Positions 44,307-57,685 are shown, counted from the first letter of the stretch. The stretch: 64,000 bases of DNA from Escherichia coli (GCF_003991155.1 NZ_CP031293.1); one strand, 5' to 3'. A program made the numbers and translations. Notes: generated by a model not told the origin, from the letters alone.

Positions 44307-45481
44307 ATGGATATAACTTGTTTAGAATGTGGCAATGTTCTTGACGACCCAACTGTAGCTTGCGATAAATGCGGTGCCACGCCTCATGTTGTAGTGCTGG
44401 GCAAACAATCGTACTTTCCTATTGGTGCTGTAACAGCAAATCTTGAAAAAAATGATTCAAGAGCATTTGATTATCGATTAGGTGAAGTTTGGGATCTAAA
44501 AAATGAAGTCACATCTGAATTCATAACCAGAATTGAGAAAAAATTTAGCCGAAAAAACAAATTTCATAACTTCCTAGACTCAGATCACAACCCTTCATCC
44601 ATTCCTACGATCCTAAAAAAATACATTAATAAGAATAATGAATTCATTGATTTATCTAGAGCTATAATAGAGAAGCTTAAACATAATGCTAATAACGAAT
44701 CGAGAGTTGCCCAACTTCAGGGGGGGAGCGTTGTTTTCATCCACTATAAGTCTACCGAACCAGAGGATTTGGGGAAACTTCTAATCGTAATGGTTGATAA
44801 ACAAAGCGCCTATGACTTTGATTCGGATAAGTTGACCCCAACAAGATTAAATCCAATTAATACCGATGCCTTACGGCAGGCTGCGATGTTCGATTTAACT
44901 TTATTCGAAGCCAGTTATCCAGAAAACAAGGGTGACTCATATGTACATTTCTTGCAAGGTAAATCTAAAAGCGATTTTTTCAAAGACTCATTAGGTTGCC
45001 GACATGATTCGGACAATAAAAGAAGCATTCAGCAATTATTCAGTGCTATAGATATTTTTGCTAGTAAAAACTCACTCGGTCGTGTACTGCGTGATACTAT
45101 TGACAATGAAGTTAAATCCTTACTGGAAAAAAATCAAAAGATAAACACGGAAATAAGTCCGTTAAGATAGAGGATATTTCAAAAATAATTGACTCATGCC
45201 TGACTGATTCACACAAATGTAAGGGAACGTTTGTCGATTTTGTTAATCTTAATGGTTTCCAGATTGACCCTCAATTTGAACCAACTCCTAAAGCAGCTGA
45301 AAGCGCGCTTACAATTGAAGTGGCAGATAACGACAATAATTTTAAGTTGAAAATAATGCGTGGAGCTATTGGAGACGAAAAGTCAAATAAGCCTGTAATT
45401 CTCACTGACAACAAATGCGAAATTGTGATAAAATTGAGTCAGGCAAATTATGATGAACTCAAAAGATATAGAGACAGCTAA
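44307..45481 (+). pseudogene. Zn-ribbon plus YejK/NdpA-like (NA37) nucleoid-associated-type protein, split by a frameshift at an A7 tract
   Basis: The first frame (44307-45170) has CLECG...CDKCG, GGSVVFIHYK, LLIVMVDK and HFLQGKSKSDFFKDSLGC. The -1 frame is open from 45116 to 45478 and carries the family-like C-terminus (...CEIVIKLSQANYDEL). Confidence 0.6.
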
Positions 45482-45483
45482 TA

Positions 45484-46698
45484 ATGACAATTGCTGATGA
45501 CTTATCAAGATTAGCGCAGATTATTAACGGAGCCTCAAGCAGAGTTGAGGGCTACTACACTGTCATAAGTCTTGAAGAAAGCATTGTTATTGTAAATAGT
45601 TCTGAAATAATTAGACTGTTACAATCTATAGGTTATAAAAAGGCAACAACCTGCATCGAAAATAATGAAATTTGGCTAGATCGCCAAGCTTCATCTTGGG
45701 ATGATGCTATAATTTATGAGAATGTTGAGTCTTTTTGGTCTAGAGTAAACACCCAAAACGCTCTTCCGAAAAATTATATCATCGGAACGCCGTTAATACT
45801 CCCTACTTCTAAGAATGAAAGCATCGAAAAAATCCATATTTTCTTTATGTGGAAAGATATCCTTTCATTAATTGCTGATCATCATAACAGTGACTGCTCT
45901 GTCTTATTTTTCACCAATGAAGACAAAAGTTATACAGTCGAACTCACGCATTTTTTACAATATAGCGAGATTAATCGCTTATCGAACTCGTCTCTTAAAT
46001 ATGAAATTATAAAGGAGCTTCTCGACACAATAAAAATCAATGATTTACACAAAAGCGAGCGCAAGCTCGTTATACGCTCAGCCATAAACGAAGTATTTAA
46101 AGCAAATGGTACGTTCAATTTCTTTGACTTGCTTAACTCTACTGAACTCGTCAGGAAAAAATATGATGAACTATATGAGATTTACACAAAGAGGTTTTCT
46201 GTAAATAAAATTCTTAACGAACTCGATGAGAAAAATCTTGAGTTCACGAGTAAAATTAACGAATTCATATCATCTAATCAGACAAAAGCATTGACTATTC
46301 CCGGTGCATTAATAGCAGCTGGTGGCTTAGTGAAGGCTAATGAAACAACCGAAGCAATATTGATTATCGCAGGACTTTGGATGATAAAAAAAGTCAATTA
46401 CATTTCTATTGAGATATTCAATGAAACATTCGACAACTTACGTTCTCGAGTGGAGTCCGCTTTCGATAAGTATTTAAAGTTTGAAGAAAATAAAGAAATC
46501 AAAGATAATGCAGATAGTATTAAGAGTAGCATTACAGGTTTGATTGATAAAGCTAAAAAAAGGATGAGAACTGTTAAATATCTCGCATCAGCCATGTTTT
46601 ATGGAGGCCTTATTTACGTTGGATATAAACAGTTCCCAGTCTTTTTTGAAAAATCGGCAGTAAATCTATTTTATTTTTTATGCCATACTATAAGCTAA
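45484..46698 (+). CDS. 404-aa protein of unknown function with C-terminal transmembrane helices
   Basis: The ATG is 2 nt after the upstream stop. Hydrophobic ALTIPGALIAAGGLV, AILIIAGLWMI and YLASAMFYGGLIYVGY. Very AT-rich. No recognised domain. Confidence 0.6.
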   Translation: MTIADDLSRLAQIINGASSRVEGYYTVISLEESIVIVNSSEIIRLLQSIGYKKATTCIENNEIWLDRQASSWDDAIIYENVESFWSRVNTQNALPKNYIIGTPLILPTSKNESIEKIHIFFMWKDILSLIADHHNSDCSVLFFTNEDKSYTVELTHFLQYSEINRLSNSSLKYEIIKELLDTIKINDLHKSERKLVIRSAINEVFKANGTFNFFDLLNSTELVRKKYDELYEIYTKRFSVNKILNELDEKNLEFTSKINEFISSNQTKALTIPGALIAAGGLVKANETTEAILIIAGLWMIKKVNYISIEIFNETFDNLRSRVESAFDKYLKFEENKEIKDNADSIKSSITGLIDKAKKRMRTVKYLASAMFYGGLIYVGYKQFPVFFEKSAVNLFYFLCHTIS

Positions 46699-49853: not shown

Positions 49854-50171
49854 CTAACAGATTTGACGCAAATACGGCAATACTCGACTCCACTTATCAT
49901 CCTGCCACGGCTGAAGTTTTACATGTGCCGTTTCTCGGACGAGGATTGCTCGCGCTCTGTTGAGTATCTGGGGATATTCTTGCTCGATGGAAGTGAAGTG
50001 ACCAGCTTCACCATGCTCCGCATCCTGAAGAAGATGAGTAACGTTCTGGTAGGCAATTAACATCACATTCCCTGCTCGCCATAACCAGGCGAGTGTGCAA
50101 AGTTCGTTATCAGTGAATTGTTTTGTGATTGGGGATTGTTGAACTGCTAGAACGAGAACGCCAGCATCCAT
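49854..50171 (-). CDS. 105-aa hypothetical protein
   Basis: Intact ORF between the ybcK-like gene and the 309-aa gene. No recognised motif. Confidence 0.4.
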   Translation of the reverse strand: MDAGVLVLAVQQSPITKQFTDNELCTLAWLWRAGNVMLIAYQNVTHLLQDAEHGEAGHFTSIEQEYPQILNRARAILVRETAHVKLQPWQDDKWSRVLPYLRQIC

Positions 50172-50282
50172 TGGCAGTCCCTATAGTAAAACCATAGCTC
50201 AGGACGCTTCGTTCAGGATAGATAATTTTATTGTACTTACCTAACTTTCTTACTATAGCACGGTTGAAAAAGTGATTATTAC

Positions 50283-51809
50283 TCAAAAATAAACCTCACC
50301 ATCAACCATATATTTGAGAGTACTTATCGCCTGCTGGGCGGATATTGTTTTCATTAAAGGATAGTGTTTAAAAACAATGCCATTCATAAAATAGATATCA
50401 CAGGTTTTATTATCTGTATTGATTATGATTTTTTCGAATGTTTTATAGGCAAGTGTACGACATAGCTCTCGCCCATTTTTACTGGTTAAGTCAATAGCAT
50501 GAAAATCACCAAGTGAGCTCACCGCTTTACTCTTCAAAGTTTTTAATGATACAGAAGCCCTTCGTAATTCCTTATCTAATACTCTGATTTTTTCTGCTAT
50601 AGCGGTAACTTCAGGCGCAACAGATAATGCAGCAATTAAATTATTAATTTTCATCTGGAGCTCAATAATTTTCAACTCTAAAGTTTCATTAGCATCTTTC
50701 TTGTTTTCAACTGGTTGGATTTTACTACAATTAAAAAGCAACTCATTAATGATATTATAATCAACCAAATCTCTCTTTATTGATGGCCTGTCACATCGAT
50801 GCAGTCTTCTCATCGGACAAACATAATAGCCATGCAAACTTCCAGATACCGCATGAACAATCATGGTATTACCACAAGCCTCGCACTTCATAACTGTTCG
50901 AAGTAGATTTATCAACATAGGATTTTTGCTACTATTGCTAATACCAAAAGGTGCCAACCGAATTTCCTGCACAGCGTAAAACAAATCATCTGATATGACT
51001 CTGGGATAATAGCCAGCGATTTCACTTATTCCTTTACCTCTTGCACGATATGAAGGTACGCATATACCTATCAGAGCTTTATTCGCTAATAATTTTTCAA
51101 TTACAGAAGGTCCCCATGCACTTTCTTTTCCTGAGAAATTCTTTACAGCATGATCATTTAAATACTTGGCTATTGCATTCAATGAGCGCCTTTCCATCCT
51201 GAGTTTAAAAATTAGCTCAATAGTTTTCACCCTGTCGGGGTCTGGAACAAAAGCCGTTCTTTTGTCATCTAAGGAGAGCCATCTCGGACAAGACGCCGTC
51301 ATAATCGTGCCTGACTCCAGTGCATCCTGCCGTTTTTTCTTCCATGATAATTTAACCCGACTTGACTTTATCTCGCTTTCTTCATTTGCCCTTTGTGCTA
51401 TAAGTATGGCTTTTATTAATGAATATGGATCATTCAAAGAGTCAATATTATAGACTGTATTATCGCAAAGAGTTATAACATCAATACCGTGATTCAAAAT
51501 CAATTTCAGACGCTCAATCGCTTCACCGACTTTTTCTCTTGAAAGTCTGTCCAGACTTTCAACTAACAATGTAGTTCCTGGCAATATATAACCATGCTCT
51601 ATAGCATCTAAAAATTCCGAAAAAGCTCCTGATTGTGCATGCTTTCCTTTGAATGCACTTAATCCTAAATCTTCATATGTTATGGTATCAAGATAATAAT
51701 CACTATTTACCTTTAACCATTCAGCAATAAGTCTTCTCTGTCGGTTTAATGAGTCGCCAGACATCTGACCTGGTGATGAAAATCGCATATATGCTATGGC
51801 TTTTTTCAT
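50283..51809 (-). CDS. ybcK: Large serine recombinase (YbcK-like)
   Basis: 508 aa with resolvase N-domain AIAYMRFSSPGQ...LLVESLDRLSR. Recombinase domain, Zn-ribbon CEACGN...YYVCP...HRCD, and a coiled coil. Confidence 0.85.
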   Translation of the reverse strand: MKKAIAYMRFSSPGQMSGDSLNRQRRLIAEWLKVNSDYYLDTITYEDLGLSAFKGKHAQSGAFSEFLDAIEHGYILPGTTLLVESLDRLSREKVGEAIERLKLILNHGIDVITLCDNTVYNIDSLNDPYSLIKAILIAQRANEESEIKSSRVKLSWKKKRQDALESGTIMTASCPRWLSLDDKRTAFVPDPDRVKTIELIFKLRMERRSLNAIAKYLNDHAVKNFSGKESAWGPSVIEKLLANKALIGICVPSYRARGKGISEIAGYYPRVISDDLFYAVQEIRLAPFGISNSSKNPMLINLLRTVMKCEACGNTMIVHAVSGSLHGYYVCPMRRLHRCDRPSIKRDLVDYNIINELLFNCSKIQPVENKKDANETLELKIIELQMKINNLIAALSVAPEVTAIAEKIRVLDKELRRASVSLKTLKSKAVSSLGDFHAIDLTSKNGRELCRTLAYKTFEKIIINTDNKTCDIYFMNGIVFKHYPLMKTISAQQAISTLKYMVDGEVYF

Positions 51810-51990
51810 GGTGACACCTGCTAACGTATGCTTTTATAAACCTTAGTGGTGAGATATAATTTTTGTTTAATTTTTATTTAAAAAGACAATTAAGGTCACA
51901 TTATCTTGAATATACAACAATAATCGTATTGCAATTTTCTTACGCCATAATCTTGAAAGCACAAAAGAATACATAAAAAAATAAAGACAT

Positions 51991-52034
51991 TAACAAAAAG
52001 CATAAAACGAGGCTCATATAAATATAAGAGCCTC
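51991..52034 (-). terminator. Rho-independent terminator after emrE
   Basis: Minus strand has stem GAGGCTC/GAGCCTC (52009-52034) followed by GTTTTATGCTTTTTGTT. Confidence 0.55.
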
Positions 52035-52065
52035 CATATTTTAGTCGTTTAGAAACAAATTATTT

Positions 52066-52398
52066 TTAATGTGGTGTGCTTCGTGACAATAAATTAATAA
52101 CCAACACACCGGCACAAATCAACATCATGCCTATAATGGCTGGCAGGTCCAGCCGTTGGCCGAAAAATCCCCATGACAGTAAGCTAATCAGGACAATACC
52201 GACTCCTGACCAGATAGCATAAGCAATCCCTGTAGGAATATAAGCCAGCGTCTGAGCTAATAACCAGAATGATGCACAATAACAAATAATTGTACCAACA
52301 GATGGCCATAACCGTGTAAAACCTTCTGAAAACTTCATTAAGGTTGTACCAATGACCTCTGCAAGTATTGCACCACCAAGATAAATATAAGGGTTCAT
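52066..52398 (-). CDS. emrE: EmrE small multidrug resistance (SMR) transporter
   Basis: Trimmed to MNPYIYLGGAILAEVIGTTLMKFSEGF, giving 110 aa with four TM segments. Confidence 0.95.
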   Translation of the reverse strand: MNPYIYLGGAILAEVIGTTLMKFSEGFTRLWPSVGTIICYCASFWLLAQTLAYIPTGIAYAIWSGVGIVLISLLSWGFFGQRLDLPAIIGMMLICAGVLVINLLSRSTPH

Positions 52399-52465
52399 AG
52401 CATATTCTTTCCTGTTCAAACTGGAGAGAATTGTACTACAGTTTGAAATCAACTCACCTGTTTCA

Positions 52466-52768
52466 TCATTGTGTACCCATTGATGTTCTTTTATATACCC
52501 TCAATAAGCGTTTCATCGCGGCACTCTGGCGACACTCCTTAAAAATCAGATTCGTGCTCACCTTTCCTTCCCGTTCTTCTCTGGTAGCGAACCGGTAATA
52601 CACCGTTCGCCAGACCTTACCATCAACGACCAGGATTCCTGCCCGCGCCATTTTAGCCGCAGCCTGATTTATGCTGGTTACGGTTGCGCCTGTTACCGCG
52701 GCAACGTCCTGTGCACAGAAGCTCTTATGCGTCCCCAGGTAATGAATAATTGCCTCTTTGCCCGTCAT
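52466..52768 (-). CDS. ren: Ren (Rex-exclusion escape protein)
   Basis: 100 aa, MTGKEAIIHYLGTHKSFCAQDVAAVTGATVTSINQAAAKMARAG.... Directly follows P. Confidence 0.9.
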   Translation of the reverse strand: MTGKEAIIHYLGTHKSFCAQDVAAVTGATVTSINQAAAKMARAGILVVDGKVWRTVYYRFATREEREGKVSTNLIFKECRQSAAMKRLLRVYKRTSMGTQ

Positions 52769-54478: not shown

Positions 54479-55018
54479 TCATATTGCCCCCAGCATGGTG
54501 GTGACCATCGCCATCAGTGGACCAGCCAGATCTGGGTCCACACGAAACATCGACACAATACCTTCACTAATTTCCTTCAGTTTCTGGTGGCGTGGTGCGT
54601 TGAGAATGACAGCCTGTTTTGCCTCACTGAGTTCCTTTTCCATTTCAGCCAACCTAGCCATAAAGCTATCCTGCTCAACCAGGTAACCGCGATATTCCAG
54701 CGGTAGTACCGCCAGAATTGCCGGGGTCAGTTCACGCACGTTATTTCGGTATTTTTCAGAATCGAATTTGTTATCGAGGAAGCGGAACAGCTTCTGGCGT
54801 GCACGGCTGACATCATCAGGGAAATCGATGGTGCCGCCGCCCAGCTCCCGATACTCATTCACAATGAGTGCGGCAACAACATCCTGATTATCTGCAGCCG
54901 ACCAGGCGCGAACGGCATCACGGATTTTTTCGTGGCCTGGCGCCTGTTTTGTTTGAGAACGATTTATCACCGCAGTCGGGGTAAATCCGCTAGTCTGTTG
55001 GTATGTAATTGGTTGCAT
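54479..55018 (-). CDS. YdaT-family protein in the cII position
   Basis: 179 aa. Alignable by eye to Rac YdaT (EY..GGG, L.PAILAVLP.E.R). Follows the YdaS-like cro. Confidence 0.6.
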   Translation of the reverse strand: MQPITYQQTSGFTPTAVINRSQTKQAPGHEKIRDAVRAWSAADNQDVVAALIVNEYRELGGGTIDFPDDVSRARQKLFRFLDNKFDSEKYRNNVRELTPAILAVLPLEYRGYLVEQDSFMARLAEMEKELSEAKQAVILNAPRHQKLKEISEGIVSMFRVDPDLAGPLMAMVTTMLGAI

Positions 55019-55041
55019 AATTGATTCCTTTAGTTTGAATT

Positions 55042-55087
55042 GACTGTTAATCAGTCTGTTAAGTTGATTGCTTATTGTTAAAGAGCG
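55042..55087 (-). promoter_or_regulatory. nutR-like site: boxA plus a small boxB-like hairpin
   Basis: Minus strand CGCTCTTTAACAA (55087-55075) lies 13 nt after the cro stop. GACTG-ATTAA-CAGTC (55056-55042) follows. Confidence 0.45.
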
Positions 55088-55099
55088 TGAAATGGAAAT

Positions 55100-55330
55100 T
55101 TAAGCTGCGTTCTTTTCGGTGTGTGGAAACAACTTCGGAAGATCCGGGCGAATCTGGTATGCCTTCACAACTCCACCAGTAGCCGTAACAATGCTGCCGA
55201 CATGTTCAGGGGATACCTTTGCTTTGTTGTGAAGCCACTTATAGACGGCCTGCTGTGAAACTTCGCAGGCATCGCCCAGTTTCTTTTGTGAACCAACTAT
55301 ATTGATCGCTGTTTTGATTGCTGGGTTCAT
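55100..55330 (-). CDS. cro: Cro-like HTH regulator (YdaS family)
   Basis: 76 aa with HTH KKLGDACEVSQQAVYKWL. Divergent from the CI repressor. GGAGG SD. Confidence 0.8.
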   Translation of the reverse strand: MNPAIKTAINIVGSQKKLGDACEVSQQAVYKWLHNKAKVSPEHVGSIVTATGGVVKAYQIRPDLPKLFPHTEKNAA

Positions 55331-55357
55331 AACAACCTCCGTGGTTAATCTGAACCA

Positions 55358-55386
55358 AGATTAAAACTATGGTTGTTTTTAGTCAA
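55358..55386 (-). promoter_or_regulatory. PR promoter (rightward early, drives cro)
   Basis: Minus strand TTGACT-17 nt-TAATCT, embedded in the 25-bp inverted repeat ATGGTTGTT-N7-AACAACCAT (55369-55393). Confidence 0.6.
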
Positions 55387-55399
55387 CAACCATTTTCGT

Positions 55400-55428
55400 T
55401 TGATGGAATAAAACCTTGGTTGTACATT
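55400..55428 (+). promoter_or_regulatory. PRM-like promoter giving a leaderless cI mRNA
   Basis: TTGATG-17 nt-TACATT. The -10 hexamer ends 6 nt before the cI ATG at 55435. No SD upstream of cI. Confidence 0.5.
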
Positions 55429-55434
55429 TGGTCT

Positions 55435-56124
55435 ATGAAAACAACACTCTCAGAAAGACTTAAAGAAGCCAGATCAGCGCGAGGCCTTACACAAAAGGCA
55501 CTTGGGGATTTGGTTGGGGTTAGCCAGGCTGCTATTCAGAAAATCGAAACAGGGAAAGCTAACCAAACAACTAAAATCGTGGAGATCGCGAACGCTTTGG
55601 GTGTGCGCGCAGAATGGTTATCTTCTGGCATTGGAAATATGTCAGACAGTACAGTGCAACCAATACAATCAACTCTCAGCCATTCCAAATACTTCAAGAT
55701 TGACGTTCTTGATATAGAAGTCAGTGCTGGGCCGGGAGTCATCAACCGTGAGTTTGTAGAAGTTCTACGCTCGGTTGAGTACTCGTTTGACGATGCTCGT
55801 CACATGTTCGATGGTAGGAAAGCGGAAAATATCCGCATCATTAACGTGCGTGGTGACAGCATGTCAGGAACGATCGAACCAGGTGATCTGCTGTTCGTTG
55901 ATATCACTGTTAAATCTTTCGACGGTGATGGTATCTATGCGTTTCTGTACGACGACACAGCCCATGTAAAGCGCCTGCAAATGATGAAGGATAAGCTGCT
56001 GGTCATCTCTGATAACAAAAGCTACTCACCGTGGGACCCGATCGAGAAAGACGAGATGAACCGGGTGTTCATCTTCGGTAAGGTTATTGGGAGCATGCCG
56101 CAGACGTACAGGAAACACGGATAA
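55435..56124 (+). CDS. cI: CI-type prophage repressor (HTH plus S24/LexA-like autopeptidase)
   Basis: Trimmed to MKTTLSERLKEARSARGLTQKALGDLVGVSQAAIQKIETG. The C-terminus has VRGDSMSGTIEPGDLLFV...AHVKRL (Ser/Lys dyad). Confidence 0.85.
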   Translation: MKTTLSERLKEARSARGLTQKALGDLVGVSQAAIQKIETGKANQTTKIVEIANALGVRAEWLSSGIGNMSDSTVQPIQSTLSHSKYFKIDVLDIEVSAGPGVINREFVEVLRSVEYSFDDARHMFDGRKAENIRIINVRGDSMSGTIEPGDLLFVDITVKSFDGDGIYAFLYDDTAHVKRLQMMKDKLLVISDNKSYSPWDPIEKDEMNRVFIFGKVIGSMPQTYRKHG

Positions 56125-56204
56125 TCAGCTGCGTGCTGATGAGGCTTTAGGGTAATGCGCTGAAAGAATTCTTTATAAAAATAACATTACGGGAAAGGCA
56201 AAAA

Positions 56205-56474
56205 ATGAGTGATAAAAAACTTATTAAAAAATCAAATAACTGTGTAGATGCATATGCTGATGCATTTGGATATTCATCTTTTGGGGAAGATGACGATCGC
56301 TTAGGCTCCATATCTTTCTTTCAGCATGTTACAGAATGGGACGCTGATGGTAGTAATGACACTGAAAGCGTAAAGTACAACATTGCAACAATTCGCATGA
56401 CGGAAGATTTAATGCTTAAACTCGCTGACTTTATTCGCGATCAGCATGATAGAGCTAAAACCAATAAGTCATAA
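56205..56474 (+). CDS. 89-aa acidic hypothetical protein downstream of cI
   Basis: GGAAAGG SD. Same strand as cI. AT-rich. No recognised motif. Confidence 0.5.
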   Translation: MSDKKLIKKSNNCVDAYADAFGYSSFGEDDDRLGSISFFQHVTEWDADGSNDTESVKYNIATIRMTEDLMLKLADFIRDQHDRAKTNKS

Positions 56475-56482
56475 TATTAACA

Positions 56483-56923
56483 ATGAAATACGGTTATTAC
56501 GAAGCTCCAAACCTAACTGAAAAGCTTGAACAAGCGGCAAGATCATCATCTTTGCACACCGCAGCATTTTCTCAATCAGCTGGTATGTCTGGCGATAATG
56601 TACCTATGCTACAATCAAGTGGTAGCGGTGGCTCTGGGAGTAATAATGTGCTTGAATCAAAAGTTGCAAAGCTTGAGTCTGATGTGTCCTACATCCGACG
56701 TGACGTTGATGAGCTTAAGACAGATGTCAAATCTATCGACAGAAACATGATCGCTGTTCTGGAGCGACTCGATTCAATAAAAGAGTCACTAGCCAAAAAA
56801 CCATCCATCGATGCTATCGATAAAAAGATTTCAGACGCAAAGCTTGCGGTATTGCTTGGTGTTCCAGCAATCATCGCTGCAGGAACAGGGCTTTATAAGC
56901 TATCAATGTACTTTTTTCTTTAG
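56483..56923 (+). CDS. 146-aa tail-anchored coiled-coil membrane protein of unknown function
   Basis: Gly/Ser linker SSGSGGSGSN, heptad-like LESKVAKLESDVSYIRRDVDELKTDVKSIDRNMIAVLERLDSIKESL, and C-terminal TM LAVLLGVPAIIAAGTGLYKL. Confidence 0.55.
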   Translation: MKYGYYEAPNLTEKLEQAARSSSLHTAAFSQSAGMSGDNVPMLQSSGSGGSGSNNVLESKVAKLESDVSYIRRDVDELKTDVKSIDRNMIAVLERLDSIKESLAKKPSIDAIDKKISDAKLAVLLGVPAIIAAGTGLYKLSMYFFL

Positions 56924-57002
56924 TGCTTAAGAAACTGCTCGCCACCTCGCATTAGGCAAAGCGATTTTTCATTCCCTATTACCCTTTCTTAACCAATCAT
57001 CT

Positions 57003-57031
57003 AAACCCGGCCCCGTGCCGGGTTTTCTTTT
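57003..57031 (+). terminator. Rho-independent terminator ending the cI-side transcription unit
   Basis: AACCCGGC-CCCGT-GCCGGGTT followed by TTCTTTT. Confidence 0.75.
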
Positions 57032-57158
57032 GCCCTCCCCTCATCACACACACCGTTAAAAAAACCACCATAACCTCGCTTCAGTTATCGCTATGCGATT
57101 CAAGTCACAAAATAAATCCATCCTAAATACAACCAGTTATATCTAAAACAACCAATAA

Positions 57159-57202
57159 AACAACTTTTGTTGTTGACGATAAAACAACTATAGTTTTAAA
57201 TA
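57159..57202 (+). promoter_or_regulatory. PL promoter with OL operators
   Basis: TTGACG (57173)-17 nt-TTAAAT. AACAAC-TTTT-GTTGTT palindrome at 57159-57174. The spacer AAAACAACTATAGTTTT nearly repeats the PR spacer. Confidence 0.6.
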
Positions 57203-57274
57203 AGTTCATCGCAACAACACAACGATACGGCAACCACCTGATTCACCGTTGCGATGACCGCTTAGATCCGCAGC

Positions 57275-57685
57275 TTGAATTTCAGCAGGCTCCGGGGAGT
57301 GCGAGGGGTGAAGCGGACGCGTGAACGTCGGTGTGACCAGCTGAAATCAACTCAACACTTCATACCTCAGTCGCTTCAACGAGGCGGCTTAGTTATGACA
57401 ACCGGCGGCCATCCACCGCCTGAATACGCGCAGAAGTCTCTATATGTTCAGCAGCCCAGCTTACGGGCAGGAGTTTTTATGGTTCATCAACATTACGGTA
57501 CGCAGACCGTTAATCGCGGTGCGGTCATGCCAGGAATGCTGGTCAAACACAAAGATGGTACCTGGACTGCATCGGCTAATTTACGCGGACGGCTTTATCT
57601 GCATCGCGGCGTCGAGCGCACTTATACCCGTGACTTGCTCGTGGAAATTTTTCTCGACGGACGCGGCAACGGCCTGAATCACTAA
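57275..57685 (+). CDS. ORF in the N position; possible N-like antiterminator, start uncertain
   Basis: First ORF after PL. Arg-rich [13 protein letters not shown] resembles N-type ARMs, but only TTG/GTG starts (57275, 57299, 57308) include it. ATG options at 57395 and 57479 exclude it. Confidence 0.3.

Follow-up and report, generated by a model that had tools for sequence, protein, structure and literature searches.

What do the two small genes encode that a lambdoid prophage of Escherichia coli carries directly behind its repressor gene cI, in the slot occupied by rexAB in phage lambda, and do they protect the lysogen against other phages? The question is raised by a stretch of 64,000 nucleotides (nt) of E. 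coli DNA (GCF_003991155.1, NZ_CP031293.1), here called the window, in which the prophage at the argU (DLP12) site carries cI followed by ORF-A and ORF-B. The pair is a mobile cassette. Its role is read here, tentatively and with a confidence just short of even, as that of a lysogen-expressed exclusion module composed of a sensor and a membrane effector, which would follow a Rex-like logic with an unrelated sequence.

The pair fills the cI-to-PL slot, as had been proposed in a first-pass annotation made from the DNA sequence, and the gene order copies the lambda order cI-rexA-rexB-OL/PL-N. Three features go beyond that annotation, namely a modular protein family with swappable partners, a conserved internal translation start, and a second home in the sieA slot of P22-like prophages.

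A cargo cassette behind cI

ORF-A (56205-56474, + strand) encodes an acidic soluble protein of 89 amino acids (aa) with an isoelectric point (pI) of 4.82 and its own Shine-Dalgarno (SD) sequence GGAAAGG, while the long form of ORF-B (56483-56923, + strand) comprises 146 aa; 8 nt (56475-56482) lie between them. With a GC content of 36.3% and 42.2%, respectively, compared to 50% for the window, coordinates, pI and composition agree with the two AT-rich ORFs reported by the first-pass annotation. Both are real genes under purifying selection, as indicated by a ratio of non-synonymous to synonymous substitutions (dN/dS) of 0.09-0.12 for ORF-A and 0.25-0.42 for ORF-B. Firm family matches are limited to the profiles phrog_4231 for ORF-A (1.7e-48) and phrog_3556 for ORF-B (7.8e-53), both labelled 'unknown function'. 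Neither protein matches a significant NCBIfam model; no Pfam family was found for ORF-A at E <= 1, and all Pfam matches of ORF-B are sub-threshold coiled-coil matches. An AlphaFold2 (AF2) model of ORF-A (predicted local distance difference test score, pLDDT, 78.6) shows three beta strands and a C-terminal helix.

The gene cI (55369-56124, + strand) encodes a repressor with a helix-turn-helix domain and an S24 peptidase domain (Pfam HTH_3 1.1e-11, Peptidase_S24 1.5e-18) and is the first gene of a putative operon cI-A-B. The hairpin without a T-run that had been noticed just past the cI stop is present (ATCAGC-N5-GCTGAT, 56124-56140, + strand, -8.1 kcal/mol); having no U-run and a stability not above chance (z = -0.9 versus shuffles), it is ruled out as a terminator. 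The first strong intrinsic terminator after cI was correctly located at 57003 and closes the cI-A-B unit (57003-57035, + strand; stem 57003-57025 of 9 pairs, 6 of them G-C, followed by TCTTTT; -14.8 kcal/mol, z = -3.3 versus shuffles), with no comparable + strand terminator found between cI and this position. A weak sigma-70-like site at the end of ORF-A (ATGATA-18-CATAAT, 56446-56475), placed like lambda PLIT, is not above chance, with 3 sites in the region versus 4.8 expected. Of the earlier proposal of a lysogen-expressed, membrane-acting module, the first half is strengthened by the kept position in the repressor operon and the lack of a terminator after cI, from which we infer expression in the lysogen; the second half goes back to one predicted transmembrane (TM) helix.

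Within the immunity region, the cassette has a history of its own. Although the 2.3 kb from 55000 to 57300 are 100% identical to strain 2016C-3878, comparison with an O26-type prophage uncovers a mosaic: cI is 99% identical on the amino acid level with a synonymous divergence (dS) of 0.10, whereas A and B are 78% and 74% identical with a dS of 0.6-1.5. Sliding identity delimits a segment (56130-56827) that is 64-84% identical to the O26-type prophage, apart from one 50-column bin (56178-56227) with 92%, and that is flanked by sequence of mostly 94-100% identity, cI on the left and the TM-coding end of B together with OL/PL on the right. The boundaries are sharp, at 56130 just past the cI stop and at 56827 just ahead of the TM-coding part of B. 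This pattern indicates that A-B has been exchanged independently of cI.

The cI allele of the window is found at >=80% query coverage in 1521 genomes, and what stands behind it differs. Four loci with the same cI protein (WP_000858975.1) or, in one case (L079), a 95% DNA-identical cI were inspected. Two of them (L077, L078) have nothing behind cI, the empty slot being ~600 nt long, one carries a DUF7946 + DUF7947 protein (L076:3757-4620), and E. coli RM19259 (L079:3771-5187) carries the PADLOC candidate PDC-M11A/B (2.9e-133 and 6.8e-52). As the same or nearly the same cI is backed by nothing, by DUF7946/7947, by PDC-M11 or by the pair, the cI-PL slot is a variable cargo site, in line with the description of the cI-N interval as a mosaic hotspot that houses rexAB and bstA (PMC8585504). 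Of 5426 complete E. coli genomes, 213 carry the pair itself. Its alleles fall into two groups, one of >=95% identity (49 genomes) and one of ~79.5% (164 genomes); many genomes of the second group are large and human-derived.

The conservation of the pair in related immunity regions, which mattered to the first-pass annotation, extends from several cI alleles to an unrelated repressor gene. In the P22-like Salmonella phage UPF_BP1, homologues of A (75% identity) and B (45%) stand directly behind mnt and converge on gene 16; the mnt gene is bona fide with Arc and Repressor_Mnt domains, and the phage annotation ties gene A to the O26 locus tag ECO26_0580. The arrangement mnt-A-B recurs in E. coli 503829 and in Serratia marcescens, where B is a diverged protein of 207 aa with the same architecture as ORF-B, and in the P22-like loci the start of A overlaps the stop of mnt. 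The mnt-gene 16 interval houses sieA in P22 (PMC10883804), next to orf59a, and the pair replaces both genes. SieA is an injection blocker with three TMs, present in 22 of 66 P22-like phages (PMC10883804). In hhalign family comparisons, neither A nor B proved homologous to orf59a, SieA, RexA or RexB.

The ORF-B family and its partners

The layout of ORF-B, proposed as a Gly/Ser linker, a heptad coiled coil and a single C-terminal TM helix, is corroborated by heptad count, AF2 model and hydropathy. An N-terminal partner-linked peptide is followed by the linker SSGSGGSGSNN (residues 45-55) and by the coiled-coil segment (residues 56-105; 56648-56797, + strand; LEARVAKLESDVSYIRRDVDELK), the most conserved part of the family with a dN/dS of 0.06 versus the O26-type allele. 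Its 14 a/d heptad positions (57, 61, 64, 68, 71, 75, 78, 82, 85, 89, 92, 96, 99 and 103) follow a 3-4 pattern without stutter; among 74 homologues, 12 of the 14 are 100% L/I/V/M/F, while positions 82 and 92 reach 88% and 59%. AF2 places helices at residues 54-105 and 109-145, the latter including the TM helix at approximately residues 119-140 (56837-56902, + strand), which is the single hydrophobic stretch of the protein (Kyte-Doolittle mean up to 1.8), is preceded by the Lys-rich KKPSIDAIDKKISDAK and is followed by 6 residues. By these models, ORF-B is predicted to be an N-in tail anchor.

B-type proteins form 109 homologous clusters across Enterobacterales, in which the last ~90 residues with coiled coil and TM are conserved and the N-terminus is variable. 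B-type genes always come with a same-strand upstream partner, which differs by locus. At least four partner types exist: A-type proteins of 88-98 aa; proteins of 93-106 aa that pair with B proteins of 173-180 aa; beta-rich proteins of 136-160 aa, among which the 151- and 153-aa forms show mutual similarity (1e-8 to 1e-10) and no relation to A; and CxxC...CxxC proteins of 119-132 aa. The A family itself is narrow, with 15 clusters and 10 representatives among 1.84 billion proteins. In IMG/VR, a B-type gene lies directly downstream in 44 of 44 A loci, and at least 62 of 79 B loci have a cI- or Mnt-like gene on the same strand no more than 1.3 kb upstream. In Citrobacter and Salmonella, B-family genes stand behind at least five different cI alleles, and the partner start often abuts or overlaps the repressor stop. 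Further sites are a position antisense within a lambda-like tail operon and a prophage end. At one exceptional locus (L108:1022-1761), tandem B-like genes (99 aa and 136 aa) have no recognisable partner or repressor and stand next to what looks, from its translation, like an AraC-type regulator; this may be a domesticated or decayed copy. Some cassettes have a third small envelope gene after B, which in Citrobacter (L003:6474-6854) encodes a 126-aa BamE-like lipoprotein (Pfam E = 9e-4, below cut-off) and in Serratia (L064:5957-6262) a 101-aa signal-peptide protein.

Partner and B protein do not vary independently. In Mantel tests, loci with similar partners also have similar B N-termini (rho 0.55, p = 0.0005), with hardly any such correlation for the C-terminus (rho 0.075). 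Where the partners are unrelated (690 locus pairs), C-modules are >50% identical in 282 pairs and N-termini are shared in only 3; A-type partners are in turn found with at least five different membrane anchors. Because the partner covaries with the N-terminus and not with the C-module, the N-terminal peptide of B probably docks the partner, which looks like an exchangeable specificity subunit of a conserved membrane module.

A further feature of the family is an internal start. In the window, GGGAG (56636-56640) is followed after a 7-nt spacer by an in-frame GTG (56648-56650) at the first coiled-coil residue, so that the segment 56636-56650 (+ strand) forms an internal ribosome-binding site. 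An in-frame start at this residue with an SD ahead is found in all unique B genes (36-37 of 36-37); the start codon is ATG in 33 of them and GTG in the window allele, the SD core is GGAGG in most and GGGAG in the window allele, and the spacing is 7 nt in 28 of 36. The mean duplex energy with the anti-SD is -9.96 kcal/mol compared to -8.13 +/- 0.33 kcal/mol for synonymous controls (z = -5.6), which were resampled with the genes' own codon usage, none of the 500 controls being as strong; 84 other internal Met codons have a mean anti-SD energy of -2.15. As SD and start are kept in the most diverged analogues, where the linker is not Gly-rich (Met73 behind AAAGGAG in Serratia; L190, L193, L196 and L197), the signal is not a mere by-product of glycine codons. 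On the other hand, the long-form start of ORF-B has no SD and lies 8 nt after the stop of A, with a range from a 14-nt overlap to 4 nt in relatives, which suggests translational coupling to the partner. Two products are therefore predicted from the signals in ORF-B, a long form with docking peptide and a short form of 91 aa (56648-56923, + strand) with coiled coil and anchor only. Gene callers have chosen the internal start for ~20 of the 109 clusters, annotated at 90-93 aa (for example P0011).

Dual-start membrane genes are familiar from phages, as in the lambda S105/S107 holin-antiholin and P22 sieB/esc. The likeness is an analogy, with isoforms that are predicted here: from one frame, two starts would yield the whole membrane protein and a version truncated at its N-terminus, able to co-assemble. 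In B, 55 codons separate the two starts, and the long form has the proposed partner-docking peptide where the holin-antiholin has a two-residue extension.

Known systems and competing explanations

A close precedent for the arrangement is RexA/RexB: in lambda, too, a soluble cytoplasmic protein and then a membrane protein are encoded between cI and OL/PL, in the direction of the repressor gene and ahead of a terminator. RexAB and the actinophage analogues Sbash gp30/gp31 and CarolAnn gp44/gp43 are described as sensor and ion channel pairs in abortive infection (PMC8585504; PMC7542560). The RexAB class is defined by a need for both genes and by membrane depolarisation upon phage infection. A soluble and a membrane protein expressed beside the repressor, as in RexAB and Sbash gp30/gp31, is a kind of system already known. 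That neither protein resembles RexA or RexB had been recognised before. ORF-A does not match Pfam PF15969, to which lambda RexA as a positive control scores 326.8 bits (cut-off 25), ORF-B does not match PF15968, and the hhalign probability is 0.3% each for the A family versus lambda RexA and for ORF-B versus RexB. ORF-A is also far smaller than RexA (89 versus 279 aa), and while RexB and its analogues have four TMs (PMC7542560), ORF-B combines a long coiled coil with a single TM at the C-terminus; internal start and swappable partners further set the pair apart from RexAB. The same niche directly downstream of cI is used by two more unrelated systems, namely BstA, one large protein accompanied by a DNA-based self-immunity element (PMC8585504), and PDC-M11, composed of a 353-aa protein and an ASCH-domain protein.

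In the tentatively favoured Rex-like reading, A-B would be a cargo cassette ('moron') transcribed together with the lysogeny repressor and protecting the lysogen from other phages at the inner membrane. ORF-B would be C-tail-anchored, with its coiled coil oligomerising on the cytoplasmic face of the membrane; the long form, made by coupling to ORF-A, would dock ORF-A through its N-terminal peptide, and the short form from the internal SD/GTG, with coiled coil and TM, would assemble with it through the coiled coil. ORF-A, or other partners in relatives, would act as specificity or sensor subunit, and upon meeting a cue of an infecting phage the B oligomer would change its state and either compromise the membrane, as in Rex-like abortive infection, or block a step at the membrane. 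An exclusion function is supported by the linkage to repressors of unrelated immunity systems (cI and mnt), by the presence of the family at other classic moron sites (antisense in the tail operon and at a prophage end), by a slot that is a cargo hotspot including a PADLOC candidate, by the exchange of A-B independently of cI, by the combination of a conserved effector with a variable partner, by the internal start in all unique B genes and by the foreign composition of the pair (36% GC for A and 42% for B versus 50%). A more far-reaching version is doubtful, by which an undescribed modular family of prophage defence, encoded in the operon of the repressor (at the rexAB position in lambdoid prophages, at the sieA position in P22-like ones), would combine an XhlA-like tail-anchored effector in two isoforms with interchangeable docked sensors, the short form setting the threshold by analogy with holin/antiholin or SieB/Esc.

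Several points weigh against an exclusion module. PADLOC-DB 2.0.0 (5027 models) contains no match to ORF-A, the alternative partners or the B variants, with ORF-B hitting coiled-coil noise only (E >= 0.006, SMC-like regions of GajA, LmuB and JetC), and both proteins are absent from the DefensePredictor supplements and, by accession, from the literature searched. In the window allele the short form may be minor, since the internal start is a GTG and the SD ahead of it is weaker (-6.8 kcal/mol). Pore formation is an assumption, as B has a single TM with only ~6 residues beyond it. Finally, the location is only guilt by association, and some repressor-adjacent cargo is not defensive.

The sieA slot invites a different explanation, superinfection exclusion by a non-lethal block of DNA entry, for which P22 SieA and HK97 gp15 are the models: at the inner membrane, B (with A) would hinder the ejection or tape-measure conduit of the incoming phage. 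It draws on the replacement of orf59a and sieA between mnt and gene 16 and on the related cassette inserted in a tail operon, the HK97 gp15 moron being located among tail genes as well. The pair indeed takes the place of sieA in UPF_BP1, E. coli 503829 and Serratia, although sequence, TM number and motif differ: SieA is a single protein of 162-164 aa with three TMs and a cytoplasmic FxRYPxEAxxFNK, encoded between genes 16 and 9 of P22-like prophages (PMC10883804), whereas B has one TM and the hhalign probability between SieA and the pair is 1.4%. All of A and almost all of B are moreover predicted to be cytoplasmic, with no signal peptide and ~6 residues past the TM, and the same C-module occurs with many cytoplasmic partners in lambdoid as well as P22-like prophages, which fits intracellular sensing better than one conduit; sieA is confined to P22-like prophages among the cases examined in detail (PMC10883804). 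We consider an entry block unlikely. Quite unlikely, too, is lysogenic conversion unrelated to defence, with B as a membrane-tethered coiled-coil scaffold that alters host physiology such as stress tolerance, envelope, division or virulence. B is like the C-tail-anchored ElaB, YqjD and YgaM in architecture only, repressor-linked expression would suit any gene beneficial to the lysogen, the third genes of the Citrobacter and Serratia cassettes relate to the envelope, and no defence database recognises the pair; yet the family is essentially restricted to prophage cargo sites, a conflict system is suggested by the swappable partners and by alleles that are rapidly replaced within identical immunity regions, and there is no Pfam match at E <= 1 to a characterised host membrane-protein family.

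A role in the life cycle of the prophage itself, with B as an XhlA-like holin accessory, a dual-start timing device or a membrane tether modulating induction or lysis, seems distinctly improbable. Dual starts are a hallmark of holin/antiholin genes, and in XhlA (Pfam PF10779), likewise small, a C-terminal TM comes after a coiled coil; some sources name B homologues 'hemolysin XhlA'. The resemblance that the first-pass annotation had called loose is real but stays below the gathering threshold of 34.7 bits in every case: ORF-B has 11.4 bits (E = 0.38), and a sister subfamily that shares the B coiled-coil motif and has another anchor scores higher (25.2 bits, E = 1.9e-5 over the full profile for P0103; 18.6-19.3 bits for others). 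XhlA is a membrane protein needed together with the holin XhlB for lysis by PBSX and is encoded in the cassette xhlA-xhlB-xlyA (PMC5589764). The pair, in contrast, is located in the immunity region and not in the late operon beside holin and endolysin, the prophage owns a complete lysis cassette ~12 kb away with a lambda-family holin, a GH24 endolysin and Rz, one relative is antisense to a tail operon, and B differs from XhlA in its membrane anchor, N-terminal extension and obligate upstream partner. Very improbable, in our view, is an addiction pair of toxin-antitoxin type that stabilises the prophage with B as membrane toxin and A as protein antidote. The co-translation of two small genes, the first for a soluble protein, and the covariation of the B N-terminus with the partner would suit it, but at least four structurally diverse partner types are unusual for the antitoxin of one toxin; addiction overlaps with abortive infection and does not exclude it.

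The surrounding prophage and the meaning of the cassette

Downstream of the pair, an OL/PL-like region (~57150-57215) is followed by a gene for a 68-aa protein, annotated only as hypothetical and assigned to the KilR family in near-identical prophages, and then by gam, bet and exo. On the other side, RefSeq lists cI in two lengths, 251 aa and 229 aa, the latter annotated in many genomes. A 25-nt inverted repeat (55369-55393; ATGGTTGTT-N7-AACAACCAT, with 9-bp arms and a 7-nt spacer) overlaps the upstream ATG of the cI ORF, and akin CAACAAC/GTTGTTG motifs recur near 57160-57200 in the OL/PL region; repeat and motifs are probably operators. As the repeat probably is an operator, the ATG at 55435, which gives the 229-aa form, is more likely the true start of cI.

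Other parts of the prophage carry genes of note as well. Downstream of cro, in the cII position, a 179-aa YdaT-domain protein is encoded on the - strand (54479-55018); the same gene follows a cro/YdaS-type gene in Citrobacter and other E. coli loci, and Salmonella loci have Phage_CII there. Between Q and holin, two + strand genes opposite to the late operon (44307-46698) code for a 391-aa 'nucleoid-associated protein' with an N-terminal double CxxC, frameshifted in the window (287-aa ORF) and intact in 2016C-3878, and for a hypothetical protein of 404 aa. Neither gene has a PADLOC match, and the two may represent another cargo pair in an stx-like position. In NZ_CP029747.1 (L001), the region equivalent to about 50000-52500 of the window carries emrE, the recombinase gene ybcK and a gene with a P22AR C-terminal domain between ren and ninE; this prophage, at argU and hence at the DLP12 site, looks like an intact-appearing relative of the cryptic DLP12.

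With respect to what the cassette means, no description of the two proteins, the tail-anchored coiled-coil architecture, the swappable partners or the dual start was found in the searchable literature. Whatever the function, the conserved internal SD and start, partly encoded by the 'Gly-rich linker', indicate that a linker can double as a ribosome-binding site, and the internal start explains why annotation pipelines disagree on the length of the B gene (~91 versus 146 aa). If the proposed function holds, a compact module of ~0.75 kb present in ~4% of complete E. coli genomes, with relatives across Enterobacterales, would be an anti-phage system missed by current defence databases, and its architecture of swappable partner, docking peptide, coiled-coil oligomer, tail anchor and two isoforms would be testable. 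It would provide a candidate identity for the sieA replacement in at least some P22-like phages without sieA, and the theme of a soluble sensor and a membrane effector behind the repressor, as in RexAB, would extend to an unrelated pair of proteins.

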